NCBI GenBank assembly: GCA_028715415.1 | Contig: JAQURX010000004.1 | Location: 20,933-84,932 of the forward strand | DNA length: 64,000 nucleotides | Direction: 5' to 3' | Source: Candidatus Omnitrophota bacterium | GTDB lineage: Bacteria; Omnitrophota; Gorgyraeia; Gygaellales; Profunditerraquicolaceae | Part shown: positions 30,550 through 42,098 of the stretch, one piece after another | Numbering within the stretch: position 1 is the first letter of the stretch | How the letters are laid out: every line of letters starts with the position of its first letter | Program-made: the position numbers and the translations under genes | Notes under the pieces: model-generated | The model's input: only the letters and a program-made list of their open reading frames with translations | Databases searched by the model: none | Told to the model about the DNA's origin: nothing

Positions 30550-31168
30550 CTAACTCCTTTGCCTTTTCTTGCTCTACATTGTCTTCAGCAAGATTCTGAT
30601 TTTGCGCAGTTAATTCATCTAACCCATTTTTTAGATCCTGCGCCTCCAATTTTGTAAAATCTTCCATTTTTGGCAAATCATTTAAAGACATTAAACCGAA
30701 ATGCTCCAAAAATTTCTTTGTTGTGCCATATACATAGGGAGAACCGGGTGCTTTTTTTCTACCTGCTATCTTTATAAGGTCTTTCTCTACCAACGAAGAC
30801 ATAACGCCATCAATATTAACTCCTCTTAAAGATTCAATCTCAATGCGGGTTATCGGCTGCTTATAAGCAATTATTGCCAAGGTTTCTAAAGCTGGTTTTG
30901 ACAACCTTTCAGTATGGCGCTCTTTAAATAGCTTCTTTAAGAATGGCGCAAAGTTTAAAGAGGAAATCATTTGATAGCCTCCGGCAACCTCAATAATCGC
31001 CATTCCGCGGTTTGAGTCCTTATATTCTGTTTTTAGATCCTCAATTGCTTTTCGGATAACTGAAACATCAATACCATCAAGGGCTTTTTTAATCTGCTCT
31101 AATAGAAGCGGCTTTTCACACGCAAAAAGCAAAGCTTCGATTGCACTTTTAATATTATTTTCTTCCAT
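30524..31168 (-). CDS. scpB: Segregation and condensation protein B
   Basis: AIEALLFACEKPL N-terminus and the winged-helix repeat typical of ScpB. It has an acidic C-terminal tail. Confidence 0.8.
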   Translation of the reverse strand: MEENNIKSAIEALLFACEKPLLLEQIKKALDGIDVSVIRKAIEDLKTEYKDSNRGMAIIEVAGGYQMISSLNFAPFLKKLFKERHTERLSKPALETLAIIAYKQPITRIEIESLRGVNIDGVMSSLVEKDLIKIAGRKKAPGSPYVYGTTKKFLEHFGLMSLNDLPKMEDFTKLEAQDLKNGLDELTAQNQNLAEDNVEQEKAKELVDEPKQIA

Positions 31169-31189
31169 AAGAATATCCCCTAGCTGTTG

Positions 31190-31816
31190 TTATCCAACCC
31201 TTTTTTGCTTATAGACGAAATTTAACAAATCCTCGGCTGTTTTAATACTATTAGATTCCTCAAGAGCCTTCTTAATCATAGACAAGGCTTCTGATTTTTT
31301 ATATTCCAGCTGCATAAGCACAGCAAGAGCTTCTTCTTCAAAATCTTTGGTTTCTTTTATTTCAAGGCTTATTTTATTATCCTGAATCAGCCCAAATTTT
31401 CCCACTTTATTCTGCAACTTAGCAACGATTTCTCTTGCTCTTTGCTCGCCTATACCCGGCAAAGATTTCAAAAAAGACACATTCCCCTCATCTATTGCTT
31501 GGGCAATCTGTGAAATCGGCTTATTAAGCGCCTTTAATGCAGCCCGAGGGCCGATACCGGAAACCGTAATAAAGACTTGAAAAAAATCTTTTTCAATATC
31601 ATTTAAAAAACCGATTAAAACCGGAATACTTTTTGATTGTTCAACCTGATGATAATGGAAGGTAATTAGATTGATATTTCCGTCCGGAGCCGTAAACTCA
31701 TCCATTCTTTGCATCACGGCTTGAGGAATAAGCACCTCGTAACAAAAGCCTCCAACGCTAACCGTCAAATAATTATTGCCTTTTTCAACTATTTTTCCGG
31801 AAATCCGCGAGATCAT
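31190..31816 (-). CDS. ruvA: Holliday junction DNA helicase RuvA
   Basis: MISRISGKIVEKGNNYLTVSVGGFCYEV ... and the HhH motifs. Upstream of ruvC. Confidence 0.85.
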   Translation of the reverse strand: MISRISGKIVEKGNNYLTVSVGGFCYEVLIPQAVMQRMDEFTAPDGNINLITFHYHQVEQSKSIPVLIGFLNDIEKDFFQVFITVSGIGPRAALKALNKPISQIAQAIDEGNVSFLKSLPGIGEQRAREIVAKLQNKVGKFGLIQDNKISLEIKETKDFEEEALAVLMQLEYKKSEALSMIKKALEESNSIKTAEDLLNFVYKQKRVG

Positions 31817-32295
31817 ATTTTTAACCTCGATATATAGCTATGCGAAATAGCTAACGCCAAAGCATCGGTAACATCAAAAAATTTCGGGACAGAATCCAAA
31901 TTTAAAATATTTACTACCATACTCTGGACCTGCGCCTTGGAAGCAAGCCCTCTTCCAACAATAGCTTTTTTAACTCTCGTTGCCGCATACTCAAAAACGG
32001 GAATGTTTTTTTTAGCACAAGCTAAAGTTATTACCCCGCGGGCATGCCCCAAAATAAAAGCTGTAGTCGGATGGGCATAATGCGCGTATAATTTTTCAAG
32101 AACTGCTACATCCGGCTTTGTATCATCTATCAATTTCGTGATGCCGGTATAAATTTTATCAAGGCGCTTTGCCAAAACCTCTTTCGGAGAGGTAGAAATT
32201 ACCCCTGCTTCAAGCAGATTAAAAAATCTCTTATCTGCTTGGATAACGCCATAACCTGTAATTGCTAATGCCGGGTCAATACCCAGTATTATCAT
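31813..32295 (-). CDS. ruvC: Crossover junction endodeoxyribonuclease RuvC
   Basis: MIILGIDPALAITGYGVI is the canonical RuvC start. 160 aa. Confidence 0.9.
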   Translation of the reverse strand: MIILGIDPALAITGYGVIQADKRFFNLLEAGVISTSPKEVLAKRLDKIYTGITKLIDDTKPDVAVLEKLYAHYAHPTTAFILGHARGVITLACAKKNIPVFEYAATRVKKAIVGRGLASKAQVQSMVVNILNLDSVPKFFDVTDALALAISHSYISRLKI

Positions 32296-33051
32296 TTAGT
32301 CTTCGTTTGCTGCCTGTTCAAGGATTTCATCAGGAATATCAAAATTAGCATACACCTGCTCTACATCATCATGCTCTTCTAATGAATCAATTAACGACAA
32401 AACCTGCTTGGCTTCGCCGCCAGTTACTTTTACTGTTGAAGAAGGAATCATGGTTACTTCTGCATCCTGGCATTTAATACCCTTTTCATCAATAGCCTGT
32501 TTAACTTTTTCAAAGTTCTGGGGAGAAGTTGTGATTTCATAATTTTTCTCATCAACCTTCATATCCTCAGCACCAGCTTCAAGAACCAAATTCATCAAAT
32601 CATCTTCTTTGGCAAGCGACTTTTCAATTAAAAAATAGCCTTTCTTTGTAAACATCCAGCTTACAGCTCCGGCGCCTGCGAAACTTCCGCCTTTTTTAGA
32701 CATGATATTCCTCAATTCGGCGCTTGTGCGATTCTTATTGTCGGTCAAAGCTTCAACGATAATCGCAACACCTCCCGGGGCATATGCTTCATAAACTACA
32801 TTCTCATAAATAACTCCAGGGAGTTCTCCTGTTCCACGCTTAATTGCCATTTTCACGTTGTCCGAAGGCATATTTGCTTCTTTTGCTTTCTGCATTATAG
32901 CGCGAAGCCTCGGATTAGTATCCGGGTTTCCTCCGCCATCACGTGCGACAACAGTTAACTCTTTAATAATTTTTGTGTAAGTAGCTCCCTTTTTAGCATC
33001 AGCTACCGCTTTTTTACCTTTATTTGTCTTCCATTTAGAGTGACCTGACAT
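32296..33051 (-). CDS. yebC: YebC/PmpR family DNA-binding transcriptional regulator
   Basis: MSGHSKWKTNKGKKAVADAKKG... is the hallmark N-terminus. 251 aa. Confidence 0.9.
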   Translation of the reverse strand: MSGHSKWKTNKGKKAVADAKKGATYTKIIKELTVVARDGGGNPDTNPRLRAIMQKAKEANMPSDNVKMAIKRGTGELPGVIYENVVYEAYAPGGVAIIVEALTDNKNRTSAELRNIMSKKGGSFAGAGAVSWMFTKKGYFLIEKSLAKEDDLMNLVLEAGAEDMKVDEKNYEITTSPQNFEKVKQAIDEKGIKCQDAEVTMIPSSTVKVTGGEAKQVLSLIDSLEEHDDVEQVYANFDIPDEILEQAANED

Positions 33052-33107
33052 TTCATTTCCCCCTTGTTTATTTCTGTTTTAAAAAGATACTTTCCAAAAA
33101 TTTAAAA

Positions 33108-33568
33108 GGCAAGCAGAATAAGCCGAGTTTTGTATCAATGCGAATTCTTGCGCATCCAAGTGATCATTTCTCTCGATCCTGGGCTTTTTCCCAGGACTCT
33201 AGCAGTTTACCCTCCCGTCCAGATATCTTTTCCATAATATCTAAAAGCGGACCACTTTCAACTCGCTTTAATAGCGAGAAAAACGGGACTATTGCACCTT
33301 ACTCCACGCGGGGTTTTCCGTCCAAACTGCATCACTGCAGCTTAGGGTAGTCTCTTACACTGCCTTTTCACCTTTACCCCCACACCAATTTTTATATAGC
33401 AGATGCTATAGCAAAATTGGTGTGGGGGAAGTTTATTTTCTGTGGCACTTTCCATGGCTTTGAAAAATTTCAAAACCCCTCTCAATTAAAGAGCGCGTTT
33501 GTCCTCTGGAGCCCGGACTTTCCTCCCCCGCACCAATTAAGTGCGGAAGCGACCACCTTCTGCTTGCC
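33108..33568 (-). ncRNA. rnpB: RNase P RNA, bacterial type A (rnpB)
   Basis: The minus-strand RNA contains GGAGGAAAGUCCGGGCUCCAGAGG (P4 5' strand), GGUAAAGGUGAAAAGGCAGUGUAAGAGACUACC (P10.1/P11 region) and ACAAAACUCGGCUUAU (P4 3' strand). The termini GGCAAGCAGAA / UUCUGCUUGCC pair as P1, and a P3 hairpin CCGCAC-uuaauug-GUGCGG is present. The region has no credible ORF. Confidence 0.9.
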
Positions 33569-33982
33569 TTAATTTTTACTTTTTACTGCCTTCTTAATCG
33601 CTAAATTAGCCAATTTATCCGCGCCAGAATTTTCTTCTCTTGGGATATGCTTCACGCAGACTTCTTCAAACCCCTGTATCAAACGAATTGCTTGGTTATA
33701 CAAAGGTATGATGTTAGGATGTTTGACTTTATAATCTTTGTTAATCTGCCTTGCGAGCAATTGGCTATCTGTATTAATCTGAAGAATTCTTGCCTTTAAA
33801 ATTAATGCTTCCTGCAATCCATAGATAAGCGCTGTATATTCAGCAACATTATTTGTAGCATTCCCAATAAAATCAGAAATATTTTTTACAACTTCCCCAC
33901 CTGAACACAAAACCACCCCTATACCAGCAGGCCCGGGATTTCCTTTTGACGCGCCATCTATATATAAATCAATCTTATTCAT
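33569..33982 (-). CDS. rnhA: Ribonuclease HI-like protein (short type-1 RNase H)
   Basis: DGASKGNPGPAGIGVV ... NNVAEYTALIYGL ... NTDSQLLARQI ... GADKLAN places the DEDD catalytic residues in the RNase H fold. 137 aa. Confidence 0.7.
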   Translation of the reverse strand: MNKIDLYIDGASKGNPGPAGIGVVLCSGGEVVKNISDFIGNATNNVAEYTALIYGLQEALILKARILQINTDSQLLARQINKDYKVKHPNIIPLYNQAIRLIQGFEEVCVKHIPREENSGADKLANLAIKKAVKSKN

Positions 33983-33991
33983 TGATAAAGA

Positions 33992-34708
33992 TTATTCCAC
34001 AAACAAGATCCTATTGCATATTTCACAAGTAACCAAACGTTCATACATTTTTATTAAATTTATTACCTGAGGAGGGACAAACATATTGCAGCCTCCGCAA
34101 TTATTCCCTTTTACCGCAACAATTGCCAGGCCATCGCGGTTTAGAAGAATCCTATCGTATTGAGATAATATCTTTGGGTCAATTTCAGGCAAAACTTGTT
34201 TTCGCTGTGCTTCTAATTGGGAAAGCCTATCGTCAATTTCTTTAATCCTGTCTTCAACTTTTTTCTTTTCACCAACAAAAACCTTTTCTTCTCCCTTAAG
34301 CCTTTCTTTTTCAGCTTCAACTTCTTTTTTCGCTTTATCCGAAAGGTCAAACAATTCTAAAATCTTATCTTCAATAACAGAACCGTCTGCTTTTGAATCC
34401 TGGATCTGCTGCAGCATCGCCTGATATTCTTTATTTGTCTTAAGAGCATATAGTTGGCCTTGAAGTTTCTTTCCTGCTTCTTCCTTTGAAGCCAACTCCA
34501 ACTCTTTATCTTTTCTCTGTTTCTGAAAATCAAGAAATTTCTTTTCTAACTCCGCTAATCCTTGTTTTTTAGCCTCAAATGATGCTTCCATTACCTTAAT
34601 TTCAGCAGGCTTAGCGGTTTTTTCGTTATTTAGAGTATAAATCTCACTATCAATTGCCTGTAATTTTACAAGGCTACCTATCTGTGTTCTTAAATCAACA
34701 TTAGACAA
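33992..34708 (-). CDS. COG1579-type coiled-coil protein with C-terminal C4 zinc ribbon (start corrected to the TTG at 34708)
   Basis: The C-terminus CGGCNMFVPPQVINLIKMYERLVTCEICNRIL has the Cx2C...Cx2CxRIL ribbon. A long coiled-coil precedes it. The ORF-track N-terminal 38 codons overlap two tRNA genes. AAGGAGA lies 7 nt before the TTG start. Confidence 0.65.
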   Translation of the reverse strand: MSNVDLRTQIGSLVKLQAIDSEIYTLNNEKTAKPAEIKVMEASFEAKKQGLAELEKKFLDFQKQRKDKELELASKEEAGKKLQGQLYALKTNKEYQAMLQQIQDSKADGSVIEDKILELFDLSDKAKKEVEAEKERLKGEEKVFVGEKKKVEDRIKEIDDRLSQLEAQRKQVLPEIDPKILSQYDRILLNRDGLAIVAVKGNNCGGCNMFVPPQVINLIKMYERLVTCEICNRILFVE

Positions 34709-34733
34709 GATATACTCTCCTTTTTTATAAATA

Positions 34734-34807
34734 TGGGCGCAATAGGACTCGGACCTATGACCTCTACAATGTGAATGTAGCGCTCTAACCAACTGAGCTA
34801 TGCGCCC
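34734..34807 (-). tRNA. tRNA-Val (anticodon CAC)
   Basis: Minus-strand GGGCGCAUAGCUCAGUUGGUUAGAGCGCUACAUUCACAUUGUAGAGGUCAUAGGUUCGAGUCCUAUUGCGCCCA folds into a cloverleaf: 7-bp acceptor stem, GUUCGAGUC T-loop, anticodon loop UUCACAU. Confidence 0.9.
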
Positions 34808-34813
34808 GTAATC

Positions 34814-34886
34814 TGGGCCCACAGGGATTTGAACCCCGGACCAAGTGATTATGAGTCACCTGCTCTGACCACTGAGCTATGGGCCC
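34814..34886 (-). tRNA. tRNA-Met (anticodon CAU; elongator or tRNA-Ile2 lysidine type, not initiator)
   Basis: Minus-strand GGGCCCAUAGCUCAGUGGUCAGAGCAGGUGACUCAUAAUCACUUGGUCCGGGGUUCAAAUCCCUGUGGGCCCA has a perfect 7-bp acceptor stem and a GUUCAAAUC T-loop. It lacks the three G-C pairs of an initiator anticodon stem. Confidence 0.9.
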
Positions 34887-34976
34887 CGAAGCAGATTAGT
34901 TAGAATGATCCCCACAGCAGACTAAATTCATAGCCATAGGACCATATTATAAATCATTATTACCTTAAGATTTAAA

Positions 34977-35005
34977 ATTATACACGAAATTTAAGTATAA
35001 GGCAA
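34977..35005 (-). promoter_or_regulatory. Sigma-70-type promoter for the tRNA-Met/tRNA-Val/zinc-ribbon/rnhA/rnpB unit
   Basis: Minus strand reads TTGCCT-17 nt-TATAAT. The predicted start is about 80 nt upstream of tRNA-Met. Confidence 0.55.
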
Positions 35006-35038
35006 GAAAAAATAAGCACCGCAATGGGTTAGAGAAGC

Positions 35039-35575
35039 TTATTCTTTAATAAACCTATCCCCGGTCCAAACCCATGTAGCCCATTTAATCTCTTTAATCT
35101 GGCAGGACCCATCTACTTTGGTAATATTCCTAGCTACTCTTATACGCGGGATAGTTGAATCAAATTCTGTTTCTATCCCTGAATCACTGCTAATTTCAAA
35201 AATCTTAACTAAGTTCATATTCTTTAGCTTATGGATCGTAAAATAAGTACGGTTACTATCATCTTTTGACCGGACAGCAATTTGTTTACATCCATCCATA
35301 TCTAATTCTATAAGCTCCAGATTAGAAAAATGGCCGGGAACAGAAAAACTCCCGATTTCACCCTTGTCTTTTCTCATTACCGCAACACGGCCCTTAGATA
35401 CCTGGTCTTTTTGATCTTCAGCGGTAACAATCTCAATCAACATATCACCATTTAAATCGGCTTTCTTAACTACAAATACTTTATTATCCTTCGTTTTATT
35501 ATTAACACTTCCACTTGAAGTAAGGCAACCAGAAAGAAATAACGCTAAAAATAGATAAAGAAACTTTACTCGCAT
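35039..35575 (-). CDS. Hypothetical lipoprotein (lipobox LSGC)
   Basis: MRVKFLYLFLALFLSGCLTSSGS is a signal peptide with a lipobox. No recognisable domain. Confidence 0.5.
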   Translation of the reverse strand: MRVKFLYLFLALFLSGCLTSSGSVNNKTKDNKVFVVKKADLNGDMLIEIVTAEDQKDQVSKGRVAVMRKDKGEIGSFSVPGHFSNLELIELDMDGCKQIAVRSKDDSNRTYFTIHKLKNMNLVKIFEISSDSGIETEFDSTIPRIRVARNITKVDGSCQIKEIKWATWVWTGDRFIKE

Positions 35576-35577
35576 TG

Positions 35578-37809
35578 CTATCCTCGCTTTCCCCTTCTTT
35601 TATTGGGTTTTTTTGCTTGGAGAATCTTTAAGAATATTGAAACAATTGAAGGGTCAAACTGCGAACCTGCCCCCTCCTCGATAATCTTTATCGCGTCTTT
35701 CTTGGAAAATGCTTTACGATAAGGCCTGTCGCTTATTAACGCCTGGAAAACATCAGCAATAGCGATAATGCGAGCGCCCATCGGTATTTCTTCTCCTTTA
35801 ATTCCACTCGGATAACCCTTTCCATCCCATCTTTCATGATGATAAAAAATAAAAGGTATCAAACCATGCAAAAACTGAATTGGCCTTATAATATCAGCGC
35901 CAATCTGAGGATGCTTCTTTATCTCTTCAAATTCCTTTTTTGAAAGCTTTGATTCTTTAAGTAAGATCTTCTCGCTAATTCCAATTTTTCCTAAATCATG
36001 CAGCATAGCTGCTTGTTTAACCAATTCTATTTCTTCTTTAGGCAGTGCGAGTGCTCTTGCGATATCCGTAGCATACTGGACGGTGTTTTCCACATGCTCT
36101 CCAGTATAACGGTCTTTTAACTCAATCGTCTTTGCAAAAGCGAATATTGATTCTACAAGGCTTTGATTGGCTTTTTTTGTAAGTTTATCAATCCTGCCTT
36201 TAAGCACTTTAACTACCGGAGTTTCTTTGGCTTTAGAAACCTTATTTTGTTTTTCTTTTTTCAAATCCAAAGATGAATAAACCCTATTGCCGCCAAATTC
36301 TTTAACTTTATTTAAAATATGATCTGCCAAATTAATTAAATCAACTCCTTTAATTGCTTTATCTTCAGGGTAGCTTGATACTGACAAGCTAAGTTTCAAT
36401 TTAACAGTATGTTCCTTATCGCCAAAGTTATAAAGATTTAATGCATCTAACAACCTTTGAGCTAAATTTAGCGCCTGCGGCCTGTCAATACCCGGAGAGA
36501 CAATAACAAATTCCTCTCCTCCGTATCTAACCACAATATCATAACGGCGAACCATATTCTTCAATTGTTTTGCAAATTGTTTTAATACCAAATCTCCAAA
36601 CTGATGACCATAAACATCATTTATAGATTTGAAATAATCAATATCCAGCATAATAACGGCAAGCCCATGCGCATATCTTCTTGCGCGGAAAAACTCTGCT
36701 TCAATTGCGTTCTCCAAATAGCGGTGATTATAAAGGCCGGTATAAGAATCAAAGAGAGACAATTCTTTAAGTTTTACATTAGAATTAAGAAGCTCTTCAT
36801 TTAGCTCAGCTAACTTTTTATCTGCTAATTTTCTATATGTAATATCCCTGATTATTGTTAGCACCTGCCGCACTTCCCCTTCAATAAAAATAGGGATTTT
36901 GCGCGTCTCAGTAACAATTTCTCTATTAGAAAACTTAGTGACTTCTTCACTAAGGAGAGACTCTCCTGTTTTGAAGACTTTACTATATTCATTTTTAACT
37001 TTTTCAGGGAGAAAAGGGAAAACTTCAAAAATACTCTTCCCCGCCATTTCTACATCCAGGCCTAAATTCTTATTCCAATCTACAAAAGAAGAATTAAAAA
37101 GAACAATCTTTAAATCTTTATCAACTACGTGTATGGCGTCGGAAATTGAATCAATGGTAGTGCGGTACTGTTGTTCCGAATTACGCAAAGAGACTTCAAT
37201 CTTTTTTCTTTCTTTAACTTCCTTTAGCAAGTCTTCGTTTGTTTTAGTTAATTCTGCTGTTCTTACCTTAACCCGGATTTCCAACTCCGACCTTGCCTCG
37301 CGTAATCTGTCCTCGATTAGCTTGCGTTGGCTAATATCCCTTGCAATGCCGGTAGTCCCGATTACATCTCCATTGCTATTATAAATCGGTGTTTTAACGG
37401 TCTCTATCCATTTCACATTTCCTTGTTTATCAATTAATTTTTCTTCAAAACTCTCGCGTTTCTTTTTATCCATTACTTCTTTATCATCATTTCTGTATTT
37501 TTCTGCTAGCTCACGCGGCCAAATGTCAAAGTCAGTCTTGCCAGCCAACTCTTCCGAACTTAAACCGCATGACTTACTGAACGAATCGTTAACGGCGACA
37601 AACCTGCTTTCTTTATCCTTAAGCCAGGCGATATCTGGAATATTATTAAGGATGGCGCGTTGCTGAAGTTCAATCTTACGAAGCTCATCTTCAACACACT
37701 TAAACTTGGATTCTGTCTTTTCCAGTTCCGTCAAACGGCTCTGCAAAGATTTTATCTCTTCGTTTAACTGCTCTTCGGTCTTGTTATCAAAATTTGACTG
37801 CCCGGGCAT
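35578..37809 (-). CDS. PAS/PAS-GGDEF-HD-GYP cyclic-di-GMP signalling protein
   Basis: Coiled-coil N-terminus, two PAS-like segments, a GGDEF domain (RYGGEEFVIV) and a C-terminal HD-GYP (HD ... HHERWDGKGYP). Confidence 0.8.
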   Translation of the reverse strand: MPGQSNFDNKTEEQLNEEIKSLQSRLTELEKTESKFKCVEDELRKIELQQRAILNNIPDIAWLKDKESRFVAVNDSFSKSCGLSSEELAGKTDFDIWPRELAEKYRNDDKEVMDKKKRESFEEKLIDKQGNVKWIETVKTPIYNSNGDVIGTTGIARDISQRKLIEDRLREARSELEIRVKVRTAELTKTNEDLLKEVKERKKIEVSLRNSEQQYRTTIDSISDAIHVVDKDLKIVLFNSSFVDWNKNLGLDVEMAGKSIFEVFPFLPEKVKNEYSKVFKTGESLLSEEVTKFSNREIVTETRKIPIFIEGEVRQVLTIIRDITYRKLADKKLAELNEELLNSNVKLKELSLFDSYTGLYNHRYLENAIEAEFFRARRYAHGLAVIMLDIDYFKSINDVYGHQFGDLVLKQFAKQLKNMVRRYDIVVRYGGEEFVIVSPGIDRPQALNLAQRLLDALNLYNFGDKEHTVKLKLSLSVSSYPEDKAIKGVDLINLADHILNKVKEFGGNRVYSSLDLKKEKQNKVSKAKETPVVKVLKGRIDKLTKKANQSLVESIFAFAKTIELKDRYTGEHVENTVQYATDIARALALPKEEIELVKQAAMLHDLGKIGISEKILLKESKLSKKEFEEIKKHPQIGADIIRPIQFLHGLIPFIFYHHERWDGKGYPSGIKGEEIPMGARIIAIADVFQALISDRPYRKAFSKKDAIKIIEEGAGSQFDPSIVSIFLKILQAKKPNKRRGKRG

Positions 37810-37814
37810 ATTTT

Positions 37815-39407
37815 TTAATATTCTCTCTGATGTTCAAGTGTCATATCCAAGAAAGTGCGCAACCTTCTTGAACGAGTTGGATGCCTTAATTTCTTCAAAG
37901 CCTTAGCTTCAATCTGGCGGACTCTTTCACGAGTTACCTTAAATACATTGCCGACCTCCTCCAGAGTCCGAGGGCAGCCATCAGTGATACCAAAACGCAA
38001 AATCAATATTTTCTTCTCCCTGTCGGTTAATGTCCCTAACGCAGAATTCATTTCATCTTTTAACATTGAATGAACAGTTGCGTTAGCAGGAGAAACAGCC
38101 TTCTTATCCTGAATAAAATCTCCGAAATGAGTGTCTCCCTCATCACCAATAGGCATCTGCAGAGAAATTGGCTCTTGGGCGATTTTCAATATTGATTTTA
38201 CTTTATCCTGAGGCATCCTCATCTTCTGAGCAATCTCTTCCGGAGTCGGCTCGCGGCCATTTTCCTGCACAAAGATTCTTGAATACCTAATGATTTTATT
38301 GATTGTTTCTGTCATATGCACAGGTATACGGATCGTCCTGGCCTGGTCCGCGATAGAACGCGTTATTGCCTGCCTTATCCACCAAGTAGCATAAGTAGAG
38401 AATTTATACCCTCTTTTATATTCAAATTTCTCAACGGCACGCATAAGGCCGATATTCCCTTCTTGAATTAAATCCAGGAAAGACAGCCCTCTGTTTGTAT
38501 ATTTCTTCGCAATGCTGACAACAAGCCTTAAGTTTGCCTCAACCAAACGCTTCTTTGTGCGATTGAACTTTAGATGCGCTGAACGAATTAATTTTATCTG
38601 TTCTTTAAGTTTCGGATACGGCACGCCTAACTGCCTCAATAATTCACGGCTTCTTGCGTTAGGGCGCTTACTTTTGTGACGCAGCTTATCAAGTTCCCTG
38701 ATTAAACTAAAGTATTTACGTACTATAGTTTCAACAACCGAAGTAGTAAAATTAAGCTTCAGCAACAACTCAAGGACGCCTGCTTCACTACGCGTATGTT
38801 TAACATTAGAAATAATTCTTTTAATCCTTAGTTGCACGCTCTTTCTTACTTTTACATCCTCTTTAACCAGCTCTTCCAAACTTAATTTCTCTTCCAAGAT
38901 ATCTTCCGCCACAAGAATCATCTCAGTGCGGGCAAACCTGGTTACCAAAGCTGCTCTTTTAAATTTATCCTCAGCATCCTCTATTTTCTTAGCTAAATCA
39001 ATTTCATTCTCCCGGGAAAGCAAAGATATTGAACCCATCTGTTTAAGATACATTTTAACCGGATCATCCAATGGCAAGAAACGATCCTCAACCTTAATCT
39101 GCTCGTTGATAGGATCATCCTTAAGCTCGTCCTTAATATCGTCTTTGGGTTCATCCTTAAGATCATCTTTCAAGTCTTCCTTTGAAACATTGTCTGACTT
39201 ATCAGCAACTTTCTCTTCCGAATTTTCAATAACCTCTATATCTTCATTACCTAAAAGCTCAAACAAGCGGTCAATATCACTAGAACTTGACATATCTTCA
39301 GGCAGCATCTCATTTACTTCATCGTAAGTCAAAAAACCTTTTTGCTTGCCTAATGCTATGATCTTCTCCATCTCTTTTGAATTAACTTCTTTTTTCTTTA
39401 TTGCCAT
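37815..39407 (-). CDS. rpoD: RNA polymerase sigma factor RpoD (sigma-70)
   Basis: Region 2 [39 protein letters not shown] and region 4. It has an acidic repeat insert ([21 protein letters not shown]). It follows dnaG. Confidence 0.95.
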
Positions 39408-39426: not shown

Positions 39427-41187
39427 TTAATTAAATTTTTTGATTAAATTATGAAATTCCTCAGTAAGCTCCGAGAGCCGCTGCTCATCTCCTAACTTCT
39501 GAGCCCGGGCTATCTCATTATGAAGGTTTTTCTTTTTTAGTTTCACCTTCTCTTCTTTTAAACGCTTCACGCAATCATCAGCCACTTTCTCCTTGCTATC
39601 CATTGATAATTCCGGAAGAAACAACGACTCGCATAAAATCTGGTCTATGTCTACATCGTTAAAATGCTGCATCAAAGAACTTGTTTCAATATTTTTTCCT
39701 TTTTCAAATAGCTCAAACATTGTTGAAACAATCTTGGAAACCCTTTGATCCTGAAAATCATCCGGGGCAAGAGTATTTCTTAGCTTATCAATTAAATTCT
39801 TTTCTTCAAGCATCAACTTTATTAAAAGCCTCTCCGTAGGATTAATTTGAAGATTTCTTTTAGAAACTTCCTTAACAGGCTCAAAACGGGAAGCCGGAGC
39901 CTTGATTTTGCCCAATTCTTCAAGGATATGCTCTTCTCCAATTCCAATTTCTTCAGAAAGCCTGTTTATGTATTCAGCTTTAATAATAGAATTCTTGAAT
40001 TTGTTAATTGTTAAGAGCATCTCAAGCGCCACATCCCTTTTCCCCTCTGCTTCTTTAATATTATGCCGGTTTCGCAATATCTTCAACTTGTAATCAAACA
40101 GATTGTAAGCATTTAAAACTACTTCTCTAAATTTAGCAACTCCTTCTTTTAACACAAATGAATCAGGGTCATGTCCTTGGGGGAGTATCACAACCTTAAC
40201 ATCCATGCCCTCTTCAATAAAAATATCGAGGCTTCGCAATGACGCCAGCTCCCCTGCTTTATCTCCGTCGTAAACCATTACAACTTTATTTGTGTATCTT
40301 TTTAAGAGGCGCGCCTGCTCATTGGTAAGTGCTGTACCGCAAGAAGCAATTATATTCTTAAAGCCCTCCTGGAAAGGCATAATAAAATCCATATAGCCTT
40401 CAACAATAACAACAAAATCATTCTCTCTGATGCTATCTTTTGCTAAATTTAACCCGTATAAATTCCTTCCCTTAACATAAACAGGCGTCTCCGGAGAATT
40501 AAGATACTTAGGGGTTGAATTATCCAAAACTCTGCCTCCAAAAGCAAGTACCCGGGATCTTATATCAAAAATAGGGAATATTATCCTATTCCTAAATCTA
40601 TCGTAGTAACCACCATTTTCTTTTGGCAGGATTAACCCGGCTTTTTCAATTAAAGATAAATTAATACTTTTATTCCTTAAGTAAGTAATAAGCGCATCCC
40701 ACTTATCAAAAGTAACCCCAAGCTTAAACAATTTTAAGGTTTCCTGTTTTACCCCCCGTTTGAGAAAATAATCCTTTGCTTTTGCGCCTAATTGGGAATT
40801 TAAGTTTGCCTCAAAAAATAAAGCTGCTAATTCATTTATCTTAAAGAGTTCTGTTGAGATACTATTAGCACCGTTATCGGAAGATTTGGTTTCCGGCAAA
40901 ATCACGCCGCTCTTTCTTGCCAAAAGCTGGACAGCCTCTGGAAAATCCATTCTCTCATGGCGCATAAGGAATTTAAAAGCGTTTCCCGATTCTCCGCAAC
41001 CAAAACAATGGTATATCTGCCGGTCCGGAGACACCATAAAGGAAGGCGTCTTTTCATGATGAAACGGGCAACAAGCCCTAAAATTCCTTCCTGCTTTTTT
41101 AAGGGGAATATAGCCGGAAATTATTTCAACTATATCAACCCTGCTTAAAATATCTTCTAAAATATTATCCGGGATTCTACCAATCAT
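39427..41187 (-). CDS. dnaG: DNA primase DnaG
   Basis: Zinc-binding CPFHHEKTPSFMVSPDRQIYHCFGCG, followed by a TOPRIM domain. 586 aa. Confidence 0.95.
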   Translation of the reverse strand: MIGRIPDNILEDILSRVDIVEIISGYIPLKKAGRNFRACCPFHHEKTPSFMVSPDRQIYHCFGCGESGNAFKFLMRHERMDFPEAVQLLARKSGVILPETKSSDNGANSISTELFKINELAALFFEANLNSQLGAKAKDYFLKRGVKQETLKLFKLGVTFDKWDALITYLRNKSINLSLIEKAGLILPKENGGYYDRFRNRIIFPIFDIRSRVLAFGGRVLDNSTPKYLNSPETPVYVKGRNLYGLNLAKDSIRENDFVVIVEGYMDFIMPFQEGFKNIIASCGTALTNEQARLLKRYTNKVVMVYDGDKAGELASLRSLDIFIEEGMDVKVVILPQGHDPDSFVLKEGVAKFREVVLNAYNLFDYKLKILRNRHNIKEAEGKRDVALEMLLTINKFKNSIIKAEYINRLSEEIGIGEEHILEELGKIKAPASRFEPVKEVSKRNLQINPTERLLIKLMLEEKNLIDKLRNTLAPDDFQDQRVSKIVSTMFELFEKGKNIETSSLMQHFNDVDIDQILCESLFLPELSMDSKEKVADDCVKRLKEEKVKLKKKNLHNEIARAQKLGDEQRLSELTEEFHNLIKKFN

Positions 41188-41228: not shown

Positions 41229-42098
41229 TTAATTTCTCTTAATCCTGTTAAACCCAGAGAAGCTGGTTATTTGGAATGCCTCTTCTCTTTCAATATTATC
41301 CAAAAGAAGATTAAGGCCTAACGTATCAGAAGAGATGTGGCCTGCGATAACTACATTAAGATTGGCGTCCTTAACCTTTTTAAAATGCTCTTCACCCAAA
41401 TGCATTGCTATTAAGGTTCTCACACCTGCTTTATATAGTTTATCAAAGACATCTTTAGACCCTTCAGTTCCTCCTGTCATATCAACAAGGATTTTTCCAG
41501 ACATCCTATGCGGAGAACCTGCGATAATCTTTGGCCCGGTAAAACTCTTTTCAGCAAGCTGATACTCAGGAACATCTAAAAGCACTGAAACAATATCTTT
41601 TACCGTTTTAGGTTTTCTCTTGGCCATTAAATTATTAATAAATGCATAAACATGGTTGTCCGCGGGAGTATGTACACACATAAATGGTAAATCTAATAAT
41701 CTTGCGGCATCAACCGGCCTTGTATGATTCTGAGGAAGAAGCCTTCTTTCAACCTCCAGTTTTCTTTCATCAAGCAGTTTTTGAGCAATAGCTTCATTTA
41801 CACCTGCTTTTTTTAACACATCAACCTGAAGTTGCATAACCTGATAAAGGCTTGCATAAGCGAAACCTTCGGGATGATGCGACATAACCAAATCAAGCCC
41901 TTGCTTTTTACGAATTTCTTCGGCAAGCAAAAGTTCACCTACTTCAACGTCTATGCCAACGATAATCTTTTTAACTTCCGTATCCGCTCTCCCGTAAAGT
42001 ATAGCGGAATCGGCATAATTAAAACTGCGATTCCTATTCCTAGGATCACGCAAGCTCCCATATTTAATAGCTAATTGATATAAACGCGATAATTTCAT
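41229..42098 (-). CDS. Nif3-family dinuclear metal centre protein (YqfO/YbgI-like)
   Basis: EVKKIIVGIDVEVGELLLAEEIRKKQGLDLVMSHHPEGF matches the Nif3 N-terminal block. The central CVHTPAD and C-terminal AGHISSDT are consistent with the metal ligands. Confidence 0.6.
   Translation of the reverse strand: MKLSRLYQLAIKYGSLRDPRNRNRSFNYADSAILYGRADTEVKKIIVGIDVEVGELLLAEEIRKKQGLDLVMSHHPEGFAYASLYQVMQLQVDVLKKAGVNEAIAQKLLDERKLEVERRLLPQNHTRPVDAARLLDLPFMCVHTPADNHVYAFINNLMAKRKPKTVKDIVSVLLDVPEYQLAEKSFTGPKIIAGSPHRMSGKILVDMTGGTEGSKDVFDKLYKAGVRTLIAMHLGEEHFKKVKDANLNVVIAGHISSDTLGLNLLLDNIEREEAFQITSFSGFNRIKRN

Follow-up and report, generated by a model that had tools for sequence, protein, structure and literature searches.

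A conserved tRNA-mRNA-ribozyme gene cluster in Omnitrophota, probably an operon, in which the RNase P RNA gene adjoins the stop codon of an RNase H gene

Two tRNA genes, a zinc-ribbon protein gene, a type 1 RNase H gene (rnhA) and the RNase P RNA gene rnpB form a compact cluster in the window (the whole 64-kb stretch of DNA that was analysed; Table 1), and this cluster is probably a conserved housekeeping operon, transcribed as one precursor from which the ribozyme would be freed by processing. The original prediction had proposed these five elements, and ARAGORN, Rfam cmscan and Pfam agree that they are real, share one orientation and are tightly spaced. Read from the sequence, the successive distances are 6, 25, 9 and -1 nt: 6 nt separate the two tRNA genes, 25 nt lie between tRNA-Val and the TTG start codon of the zinc-ribbon gene, and the ATG of the RNase H gene follows 9 nt past the zinc-ribbon stop codon, while at the last junction position 33569 closes the RNase H TAA codon and at the same time opens the RNase P RNA alignment. 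A ribozyme that starts on the last base of a stop codon suggests excision from a longer transcript. The cluster is the local form of an old gene neighbourhood, (Nif3)-dnaG-rpoD-tRNA-Ile2-Zn-(RNase H)-rnpB, where Zn stands for the zinc-ribbon gene, and it is from this comparative anatomy that we infer a single transcript and a coupled regulation of its parts.

Table 1. Features of the cluster and of its surroundings in the window
Feature	Position	Strand	Evidence or remark
tRNA(CAT)	34814..34886	-	ARAGORN and Rfam cmscan, 73.7 bits; CCA not encoded
tRNA-Val(CAC)	34734..34807	-	ARAGORN and Rfam cmscan, 70.4 bits; CCA not encoded
CT398/HP0958/Rv2229c-family zinc-ribbon CDS, 238 aa	33992..34708	-	Pfam PF24481, PF02591
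Type 1 RNase H (RNase HI) CDS, 137 aa	33569..33982	-	Pfam RVT_3, RNase_H
rnpB, type-A RNase P RNA, 467 nt	33103..33569	-	cmscan RF00010
Sigma70-type promoter-like site TTGCCT-17-TATAAT	34977..35005	-	consensus scan, 10/12
yebC	33051..32296	-	starts 52 nt after rnpB
ruvC	32295..31813	-	after yebC
ruvA	31816..31190	-	after ruvC
Nif3	42098..41229	-	PF01784, 30.8 bits against a cut-off of 23.4
dnaG	41187..39427	-	upstream context
rpoD	39407..37815	-	upstream context
PAS-GGDEF-HD-GYP protein	37809..35578	-	upstream context
178-aa ORF	35575..35039	-	no Pfam match

The claim of a full type-A RNase P RNA was borne out by a covariance-model search, in which RF00010 matched with 232.3 bits against a gathering score of 100 (E = 3e-74, cmscan) and the alignment spanned model positions 1-367 of 367 without truncation, the 467 nt including two expansion segments. 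Both universally conserved P4 strands (GAGGAAAGUCC ... ACAnAAnnCGGCUUA) are present in this alignment, and a P1 helix of 13 bp (AAGGCAAGCAGAA / UUCUGCUUGCCUU) puts the ends of the gene at 33570 and 33106. Inside the gene, at 33261..33234, there is also a promoter-like site with 10 of 12 consensus positions, which could drive yebC separately. By score, P4 and P1, the window rnpB encodes a bacterial type-A RNase P RNA, the same RNA family as that of E. coli, with predicted catalysis. In the model bacteria E. coli and B. subtilis, rnpB is a stand-alone, monocistronic gene with its own promoter and terminator, and the RNA is made as a primary transcript; in contrast, the window gene touches an open reading frame and has neither a recognisable promoter nor a recognisable terminator.

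The two protein-coding genes were assigned from profile and structure matches. The zinc-ribbon gene is preceded by the SD sequence GGAGAG at 34720..34715, and its product is identical to an NCBI protein of 238 aa (P0001). It matches the Pfam families CT398_CC (PF24481, 37.7 bits against a cut-off of 27, 2.4e-9) and Zn_ribbon_9 (PF02591, 36.7 against 29.1, 4.5e-9) as well as the PDB entries 4ILO (5e-39), 3NA7 (8e-24) and 5Y05 (6e-14), with MSMEG_4306, CT398 and HP0958 as its profile relatives, and the four cysteines C204, C207, C228 and C231, arranged as two CxxC pairs, are invariant across 80 homologs. The protein is a member of the CT398/HP0958/Rv2229c family (COG1579/DUF164), with a predicted coiled-coil hairpin and C4 zinc ribbon. 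For the RNase H, the Pfam matches are RVT_3 (PF13456, 5e-25) and RNase_H (PF00075, 7e-13, 49.4 bits against 25.8), and the structural matches are PDB 3HST (4.4e-26), 3U3G (6e-26) and also 4E19 and 2EHG, the best solved relative being the N-terminal domain of Rv2228c (3HST). The four acidic catalytic residues D9, E48, D72 and D122 are identical to those of 3HST and 3U3G in the alignment. The 137-aa protein is a single-domain type 1 RNase H of the Rv2228c-N / Sulfolobus tokodaii RNase HI type, its activity being predicted; its exact sequence was found only on one 933-bp Logan contig of unknown library type.

These matches make apt the parallel that had been drawn with Rv2228c, Rv2229c and Rv2230c of M. 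tuberculosis, as 3HST is the best match of the RNase H and the zinc-ribbon profile matches MSMEG_4306. In M. smegmatis, Nif3, the zinc-ribbon gene and RnhC form one operon according to RNA-seq and RT-PCR (PMC5741613; PMC5224475). The mycobacterial operon (Rv2230c-Rv2229c-Rv2228c; MSMEG_4307-4306-4305) has the homologous zinc-ribbon protein and RNase H domain in common with the window, but Nif3 directly precedes the zinc-ribbon gene there, whereas the window Nif3 gene, predicted to be non-adjacent and confirmed weakly by its PF01784 score, lies ~6.5 kb upstream, with dnaG, rpoD, the GGDEF protein, the 178-aa ORF and the two tRNA genes in between. Furthermore, the mycobacterial RNase H carries an acid-phosphatase/CobC domain that the window enzyme lacks, and in the window tRNA genes precede the zinc-ribbon gene and rnpB abuts rnhA, whereas in M. 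tuberculosis rnpB is a gene away, located between Rv2226 and Rv2227 (PMC3774663, Table 4).

The pair of tRNA(CAT) and tRNA-Val(CAC) makes up the entire tRNA complement of the window according to ARAGORN and cmscan. The former had been called tRNA-Met, and a tRNA gene with a CAT anticodon is indeed there, but the methionine identity did not stand: judged by its E. coli matches, its acceptor stem and its replacement by TAT tRNAs in relatives, it is most likely tRNA-Ile2, the AUA decoder, with a predicted lysidine through which the CAU anticodon would be read as lysidine-AU. The best six E. coli matches listed are all annotated as tRNA-Ile, with 85-87% identity over 62 nt; the closest one is ileX, and the match that was inspected is the tRNA-Ile gene beside dnaG-rpoD-mug. 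E. coli genomes have a median of two matching places per genome, which we take to be the ileX and ileY genes. The acceptor stem, GGGCCCA/UGGGCCC, has the elongator-type, non-initiator G1-C72 pair, as do those of 59 of 65 relatives, and CC occupies acceptor positions 4-5 in 57 of 65 loci; the window tRNA has C4 and C5, which form the C4-G69 and C5-G68 pairs reported as TilS determinants in E. coli. In three relatives (L098, L101 and L102) a tRNA gene with the anticodon TAT and an identical acceptor stem stands between rpoD and the zinc-ribbon gene, i.e., the position can be filled by the other AUA decoder, tRNA-Ile(UAU). The E. coli ileX gene is likewise located just downstream of dnaG-rpoD-mug, although a gene on the opposite strand separates it from rpoD and no zinc-ribbon gene, rnhA or rnpB follows it. 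Of the 62 Omnitrophota-type loci with enough upstream sequence, 55 have both a CAT tRNA and a tRNA-Val(CAC) ahead of the zinc-ribbon gene. Anticodon-only tools apparently mislabel the CAT tRNA at this conserved position as tRNA-Met.

The synteny around rnpB extends to relatives of the window. Omnitrophota-type loci were obtained from a scan of a genome collection with a 25-sequence zinc-ribbon alignment, which returned this type only; other phyla were reached via profile searches, context look-ups and a metagenome scan, and the taxon labels of these non-Omnitrophota loci come solely from near-identical named proteins, many loci staying unlabelled. Among 77 informative Omnitrophota-type loci, with zinc-ribbon proteins only 39-76% identical to that of the window, the cluster recurs with rnpB immediately behind the RNase H gene in 73; rnpB is missing after rnhA in L057, L073, L079 and L080. 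The junctions leave no space for separate signals: tRNA-Val is a median of ~30 nt away from the zinc-ribbon start, 57 of 85 loci have a zinc-ribbon stop codon that overlaps the start of the RNase H gene, and the RNase H reading frame runs 1-75 nt into rnpB in 37 of the 66 loci with a well-defined P1. Such overlaps were verified against cmscan coordinates for L032 (71 nt), L061 and L062 (38 nt each), L045 (7 nt), L036 (6 nt) and the window (1 nt). Relatives also share the upstream block Nif3-dnaG-rpoD-(variable genes)-tRNAs-Zn and, in most Omnitrophota-type loci, the order yebC-ruvC-ruvA downstream, with 25-264 nt between rnpB and yebC. Among Nitrospirota and unassigned lineages, rnpB is found at most 3 kb downstream of the zinc-ribbon gene and on the same strand in 35 of 48 informative loci, directly adjoining the zinc-ribbon gene in 15 of these, where RNase H is absent; the other 13 have no rnpB nearby. 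The arrangement, described as unusual by the original prediction, is so in comparison with model organisms, but it is the rule in Omnitrophota, common in Nitrospirota and reported for Borrelia and, with one gene between, for M. tuberculosis. The source of the window is a metagenome-assembled genome, and the conservation of order in relatives rules out mis-assembly or chance matches as its origin: the same order is shared by over 70 contigs, which are independent and come from different studies, and the RNA matches have E-values of 3e-74 and about 1e-13, which leaves a negligible probability for an artefact.

Part of this neighbourhood was drawn by Pereira et al. in 2011 (PMC3372290). The legend of their Fig. 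3B assigns colours to dnaG, a sigma70-family gene, tRNA-Met and rnhA in the vicinity of flgZ homologs, for seven species of seven taxa, and indicates an RNase P RNA gene downstream of the Borrelia burgdorferi flgZ homolog; in their text, Nif3 is said to lie immediately ahead of the flgZ homolog of other taxa. The order dnaG-rpoD ... tRNA-Zn-rnhA of that DUF164/FlgZ (HP0958) neighbourhood is common to the window. However, the discussion there is confined to Nif3, rpoD and dnaG, rnpB appears once, in the legend and for one species, and the fusion or overlap of rnhA and rnpB, tRNA-Val, the phylum-wide conservation and the probable Ile2 identity are absent (PMC3372290). Across open-access papers and bioRxiv preprints, a linkage of rnpB with rnhA, the zinc ribbon, COG1579, CT398 or Rv2228c is undiscussed beyond this one figure legend, and the fusion or overlap of rnpB and its breadth appear to be undescribed.

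Our promoter and terminator calls, consensus scans combined with conservation, agree with a single transcription unit, the scans as such not being evidence of function. The predicted TTGCCT-17-TATAAT site is present 90 nt upstream of the first tRNA. Since 14 such sites occur in the scanned region 31000..36000 where 13.3 are expected, the lone window site is not above chance, and its support comes from conservation: of 66 related loci, 50 have a TTGCCA/TTGCTA-17-TAxxAT site with at least 9 of 12 matching positions in the 160 nt ahead of the CAT tRNA, against 3 of 86 control coding windows. Between the cluster elements of the window, the consensus scan detected no terminator-like and no strong promoter-like site, and terminator-like sites after rnpB were found in just 9 of 73 loci. 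A conserved leader motif of the TTCTTTGA type was considered as a -35 or -10 box and rejected, as its spacing to P1 or to downstream -10-like hexamers misfits.

We regard it as somewhat unlikely that rnpB is instead transcribed independently, from a promoter of its own within the final codons of rnhA, with the unit of tRNAs, zinc-ribbon gene and rnhA ending by read-through or decay; the tight packing would then result from compaction of the genome and an inherited order of genes and would say nothing of shared transcription. The monocistronic rnpB genes of E. coli and B. subtilis set a precedent for such independence, the four Omnitrophota-type loci without rnpB after rnhA demonstrate that the link is breakable, and the A/T-rich 5' flank of the window gene (GTAAAAAGTAAAAATT) might hide a weak or non-canonical promoter in the 3' end of rnhA. 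In six relatives with a spacer before rnpB (L052, L083, L087, L069, L035 and L024), P1 is preceded at 5-15 nt, the right distance for a canonical -10 box, by TATAAT or TATATT, which points to independent rnpB transcription in some lineages. On the other hand, the consensus scan found no sigma70-type site of at least 9/12 ending near the window rnpB, just 11 of 73 relatives have one upstream of rnpB (3 of 86 control coding windows do), and -10-like hexamers at -12..-7 showed no position-specific enrichment across 66 loci anchored on the first P1 base. Neither is there a terminator between rnhA and rnpB, and every complete rnhA message contains the 5' part of rnpB wherever the reading frame overlaps it, by up to 75 nt.

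Under the operon reading that we favour, transcription would start at the sigma70-type promoter at 35005..34977 and proceed through tRNA-Ile2(CAU), tRNA-Val(CAC), the zinc-ribbon gene, rnhA and rnpB. Nor does the series of genes stop at rnpB, where the original prediction left off: yebC-ruvC-ruvA continue on the same strand, and because the 52-nt gap contains no terminator-like site, the transcription unit probably extends into these genes. RNase P would cut at the 5' side of each tRNA and, since CCA is encoded in neither of them, an RNase Z-type cut would be expected at the 3' sides. After the cut behind tRNA-Val, the message would begin with a 25-nt leader bearing the GGAGAG ribosome-binding site, and zinc-ribbon protein and RNase HI may be produced from it by coupled translation. 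Finally, two cuts would free the RNase P RNA, an endonucleolytic one that falls at the stop codon of rnhA or inside it, and a second one before yebC.

Mixed tRNA-mRNA operons as such are known, e.g., tufB and metY-nusA-infB of E. coli, whose tRNAs are freed by RNase P and 3' nucleases; unlike the window cluster, these operons have no RNase P RNA inside. The mitochondria of S. pombe and S. cerevisiae (RPM1) provide a parallel in that their RNase P RNA comes from a long precursor also bearing its tRNA substrates, and in S. pombe it is cleavage at the tRNAs on either side that fixes the ends of rnpB (PMC6097661). Whereas mitochondrial tRNAs flank rnpB and define its ends, in the window an mRNA intervenes and the 5' end of rnpB coincides with a stop codon, so that a cut other than the mitochondrial type would be needed.

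The arrangement also raises the question of a functional linkage, in which the zinc-ribbon protein and/or RNase HI would have RNase P RNA or the tRNA/rnpB precursor as a target, e.g., as an RNA chaperone or processing factor, and the products of rnhA and rnpB would be made at mutual expense, as the rnhA message would lose its stop codon or its 3' end when rnpB is excised. We consider this quite improbable. It is consistent with the overlaps of reading frame and rnpB documented in relatives, with the proximity of zinc-ribbon gene and rnpB in Omnitrophota, Nitrospirota and unassigned lineages, Borrelia (PMC3372290) and Mycobacterium (PMC3774663), and with the RNA chaperone role in FlaA production proposed for HP0958, whose family is predicted to bind nucleic acid (PMC3372290). 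However, reported experiments have linked members of the family with RpoN, the type III secretion apparatus (its ATPase) and RNA polymerase/DNA rather than with RNase P (PMC3372290, PMC8469502, PMC7092591); proximity downstream of rpoD could stem from an ancient block of highly expressed genes, and the 13 non-Omnitrophota loci without a nearby rnpB also speak against it. The molecular role of the family is still termed mysterious in the literature (PMC8469502). As a speculation, to which we likewise give a low probability, rnpB might be matured from the 3' end of the rnhA message at mutual expense and the CT398/HP0958/Rv2229c family might be a dedicated partner in stable-RNA biogenesis, serving RNase P RNA and/or tRNA-Ile2. 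If true, each 5' cut of RNase P RNA would strip the stop codon, or in relatives up to 75 nt of coding sequence, from the rnhA mRNA, and such a partnership would explain why the zinc-ribbon gene is located between tRNA and rnpB in at least four phyla.

The production and regulation of RNase P RNA have been little studied outside a few model bacteria. If the operon reading holds, a whole phylum would derive this ribozyme from the end of an mRNA whose beginning carries the ribozyme's own tRNA substrates, reading frame and ribozyme would often share sequence, and the cluster would be a natural test case for mRNA translation or decay coupled to the maturation of a ribozyme. The linkage of the COG1579/DUF164 gene to rnpB and to an AUA-decoding tRNA in Omnitrophota, Nitrospirota, Borrelia and mycobacteria also provides a testable lead for the role of this protein family (HP0958, CT398, Rv2229c).

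Five co-oriented, tightly spaced elements were found on the minus strand, as the original prediction had described them: two tRNAs, a coiled-coil zinc-ribbon gene of the COG1579/DUF164 family (Zn), an RNase H gene and a full rnpB, the last recovered by a covariance-model search (see the table). ARAGORN and Rfam detected no tRNAs in the 64 kb besides this pair. The spacers measure 6 nt between the tRNAs, 25 nt from tRNA-Val to the TTG codon and 9 nt from the Zn stop to the RNase H ATG, and the RNase P RNA alignment begins on the final A of the RNase H TAA stop. The 13-bp P1 helix (AAGGCAAGCAGAA/UUCUGCUUGCCUU), which joins the ends of the RNA, places these at 33570 and 33106, with an uncertainty of 1-3 nt. 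The RNA is 467 nt long, ~100 nt above the Rfam consensus length owing to two insertions (~33427-33396 and ~33278-33236); lengths among relatives range from 308 to 604 nt.

Features of the rnpB cluster and of related loci (L numbers) used for comparison
Feature	Position	Strand	Details
tRNA, anticodon CAT	34886..34814	minus	ARAGORN and Rfam agree
tRNA-Val(CAC)	34807..34734	minus	ARAGORN and Rfam agree
Zn ORF	34708..33992	minus	238 aa, TTG start, GGAGAG 6 nt upstream; CT398-like coiled-coil hairpin and C4 zinc-ribbon domain
RNase H/RVT_3 protein ORF	33982..33569	minus	137 aa; domain match
rnpB, RNaseP_bact_a	33569..33103	minus	Rfam model, 232.3 bits vs gathering score 100, E = 3e-74, whole model covered
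TTGCCT-17-TATAAT	35005..34977	minus	promoter-like match
TTGAAA-16-TATTAT	33234..33261	minus	10/12; inside rnpB expansion segment
PAS-GGDEF-HD-GYP gene	35578..37809	minus	c-di-GMP turnover
tRNA-Ile (UAU), anticodon TAT	L098:536-608		between rpoD and Zn
tRNA-Ile (UAU), anticodon TAT	L101:2898-2970		between rpoD and Zn
tRNA-Ile (UAU), anticodon TAT	L102:2897-2971		between rpoD and Zn
c-di-GMP-I riboswitch	L062:203-293		upstream of cluster
Motif 5′ of rnpB	L001:5115-5132		
RNase HII gene	L085:5765-6433	opposite	Nitrospirota, GCA_040757595.1

The Zn protein matches an NCBI entry from a Candidatus Omnitrophica MAG at 100% identity. Upstream on the same strand lie genes for CvpA, Nif3 (a weak match, yet exceeding the cut-off), DnaG, RpoD, a PAS-GGDEF-HD-GYP protein and a 178-aa ORF, and downstream of rnpB, after a 52-nt gap, yebC, ruvC, ruvA and scpB. 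The PAS-GGDEF-HD-GYP gene sits between rpoD and the tRNAs in many relatives as well, and one relative carries a c-di-GMP-I riboswitch.

Among solved structures, the RNase H is closest to Rv2228c of M. tuberculosis (its N-terminal RNase H domain; 3HST, 4.4e-26), 3U3G and 4H8K (named only 'Ribonuclease H' in the PDB), 4E19 (an RNase HI/H1 entry) and Sulfolobus tokodaii ST0753/RNase HI (3ALY, 2EHG), and these alignments show conservation at the four acidic positions D9, E48, D72 and D122. The Zn profile matches CT398 (4ILO, 5e-39), HP0958 (3NA7, 8e-24) and MSMEG_4306 (5Y05, 6e-14), and its four cysteines are invariant across 80 homologs. The comparison drawn earlier with mycobacterial Rv2228c, Rv2229c and Rv2230c is therefore apt, since the RNase H matches the Rv2228c domain and the Zn profile MSMEG_4306; in M. 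smegmatis, Nif3, Zn and RnhC (MSMEG_4307-4305) were demonstrated to form one operon (PMC5741613, PMC5224475).

Both predicted tRNAs are present, but the one read as tRNA-Met is probably tRNA-Ile2, judging from several sequence features. In a BLAST search of 5,426 complete E. coli genomes, the best six matches listed were all tRNA-Ile genes (85-87% identity), with about two places matched per genome, which we take to be the tRNA-Ile2 genes ileX and ileY. The match inspected was ileX, just downstream of dnaG-rpoD-mug and thus in the same neighbourhood as the CAT tRNA here. G1-C72 is paired, so the tRNA is no initiator, and the acceptor stem carries C4 and C5, as in 57 of 65 relatives; in E. coli the TilS determinants include C4-G69 and C5-G68. 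Moreover, a tRNA with anticodon TAT, the alternative AUA decoder, occupies this position in three metagenomic loci, with the acceptor stem GGGCCCA/UGGGCCC kept, which suggests that the AUA-decoding strategy was switched at a fixed genomic position.

Conservation was assessed in 82 Omnitrophota-type loci with adjacent Zn and RNase H genes, drawn from a GTDB scan at one genome per species (Zn identity to the window protein 39 to 74%), from context look-ups and from the window; record titles are mostly Candidatus Omnitrophota, with some third-party assemblies labelled Planctomycetales or Planctomycetia. The synteny of the rnpB neighbours holds: located by two P4 motifs and checked with cmscan, rnpB lies directly 3′ of the RNase H gene in 73 of the 77 loci with enough sequence. 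Both tRNAs are upstream in 55/62 loci, and yebC-ruvC-ruvA come next in most. The four loci without rnpB at this site (L057, L073, L079 and L080) belong to a sub-lineage whose RuvC is divergent (31-32% identity) and in which yebC lies 41-150 nt 3′ of the RNase H gene; rnpB has either moved elsewhere in these genomes or is absent. In L057, the opposite strand carries a tmRNA gene 1 kb upstream.

Measured from the RNase H stop, the first base of P1 lies at a median of -2 nt, and in 37 of the 66 loci whose P1 spans at least 9 bp the ORF ends within rnpB. The overlaps group at 1-12, 28-41 and 67-75 nt, and those of L032 (71 nt), L061 and L062 (38 nt), L045 (7 nt) and L036 (6 nt) match cmscan coordinates. 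In L019 and L039 the frame stays open for >130 nt into rnpB; either the overlap there is extreme or an error in sequencing or assembly has deleted the stop codon. In 57/85 loci the Zn ORF ends beyond the RNase H start (typically -14, -8, -4 or -1 nt, with starts estimated from tblastn coordinates), and the median gap from tRNA-Val to Zn is ~30 nt. Where the ORF overlaps rnpB, the complete RNase H message must include the 5′ part of the ribozyme. This junction anatomy, together with the promoter and terminator distribution given below, is as would be expected for a single transcription unit from which the RNA parts are released by processing.

Consensus scans identified TTGCCT-17-TATAAT as the top minus-strand promoter-like match near the cluster and no terminator-like site between its elements. 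The raw count of promoter-like matches did not exceed that in shuffled sequence, so this single site weighs little alone. Among relatives, the 160 nt preceding the CAT tRNA contain a sigma70-type site (≥9/12) in 50/66 loci, almost always of the form TTGCCA/TTGCTA-17-TAxxAT, against 3/86 control windows inside the Zn ORF and 11/73 windows upstream of rnpB. Terminator-like hairpins follow rnpB in 9/73 loci. The TTGAAA-16-TATTAT site, ~180 nt upstream of yebC, could be an internal yebC-ruvCA promoter or a chance match.

In the proposed mechanism, transcription would start at the conserved promoter, and RNase P would cleave 5′ of both tRNAs. Neither tRNA encodes CCA, and since CCA-less precursors receive an RNase Z-type 3′ cut, such a cut is expected here; after tRNA-Val it would leave a 25-nt leader retaining the ribosome-binding site. 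Translation of the Zn protein and RNase H would be coupled, and nucleases would free rnpB by cutting at the stop codon of the RNase H ORF and ahead of yebC. The chief alternative is a promoter for rnpB concealed in the 3′ end of rnhA, and TATAAT-like boxes do lie 5-15 nt before P1 in six relatives with a spacer; these suggest that release by processing and an rnpB promoter may both exist within the phylum. A motif, (G)TTCTTTGA(A/T)A(A)T with variants, is found 2-10 nt 5′ of P1 in ~32/73 loci (e.g., L001, L009, L014, L016, L030) and is absent from the window. It occurs there at roughly ten times the background rate and is retained whether coding in any frame, containing the RNase H stop codon or intergenic. 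Its distance is unworkable for a sigma70 promoter; it may serve as a processing site or as an unusual type of promoter element.

Operons that combine tRNAs with mRNAs are well known. A precedent for RNase P RNA embedded with its own substrates is the polycistronic precursor of mitochondria (PMC6097661), and the DUF164 neighbourhood with dnaG, rpoD, 'tRNA-Met' and rnhA appeared in a 2011 figure (PMC3372290). In the open-access literature and bioRxiv preprints we found no description of a bacterial rnpB abutting or overlapping an ORF, of phylum-wide conservation of such a junction or of the breadth of the Zn-rnpB linkage.

This linkage extends beyond Omnitrophota. Context look-ups revealed two carriers of dnaG-rpoD-tRNA(CAT)-Zn-RNase H-rnpB, L084 from a Nitrospirae MAG (rnpB 10 nt past the RNase H stop) and the unassigned contig L087. 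In L085, from a further Nitrospirota MAG, the order is Zn-[RNase HII, opposite strand]-rnpB, with RNase HII filling the slot held elsewhere by RNase HI; no rnpB was found in the L086 locus. Scanning metagenomes with an alignment centred on Nitrospirota gave 48 informative loci that were not Omnitrophota-like: 8 showed Zn-RNase H-rnpB, 15 had rnpB immediately 3′ of Zn, 12 had it farther downstream but co-oriented (0.9-2.7 kb), and in 13 it was not found. All 18 motif-based calls checked by cmscan were confirmed (265-320 bits). Examples fall in Nitrospiria, Thermodesulfovibrio-like lineages and Nitrospira, as labelled indirectly through near-identical named proteins. The flgZ homolog of B. burgdorferi has rnpB downstream of it (PMC3372290, Fig. 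3B legend), and in M. tuberculosis rnpB is between Rv2226 and Rv2227, one gene off Rv2228c (PMC3774663, Table 4). A further, less likely rival reading, suggested by such proximity, is that the Zn protein or RNase H would be functionally tied to RNase P RNA; published data lend this no support, as they connect family members with RpoN, with secretion and with RNA polymerase/DNA (PMC3372290, PMC7092591, PMC8469502). Given the Nitrospirota and metagenomic arrangements and these two species, the more general linkage is rpoD-tRNA(CAT)-Zn-rnpB, with an RNase H gene between Zn and rnpB in some lineages.
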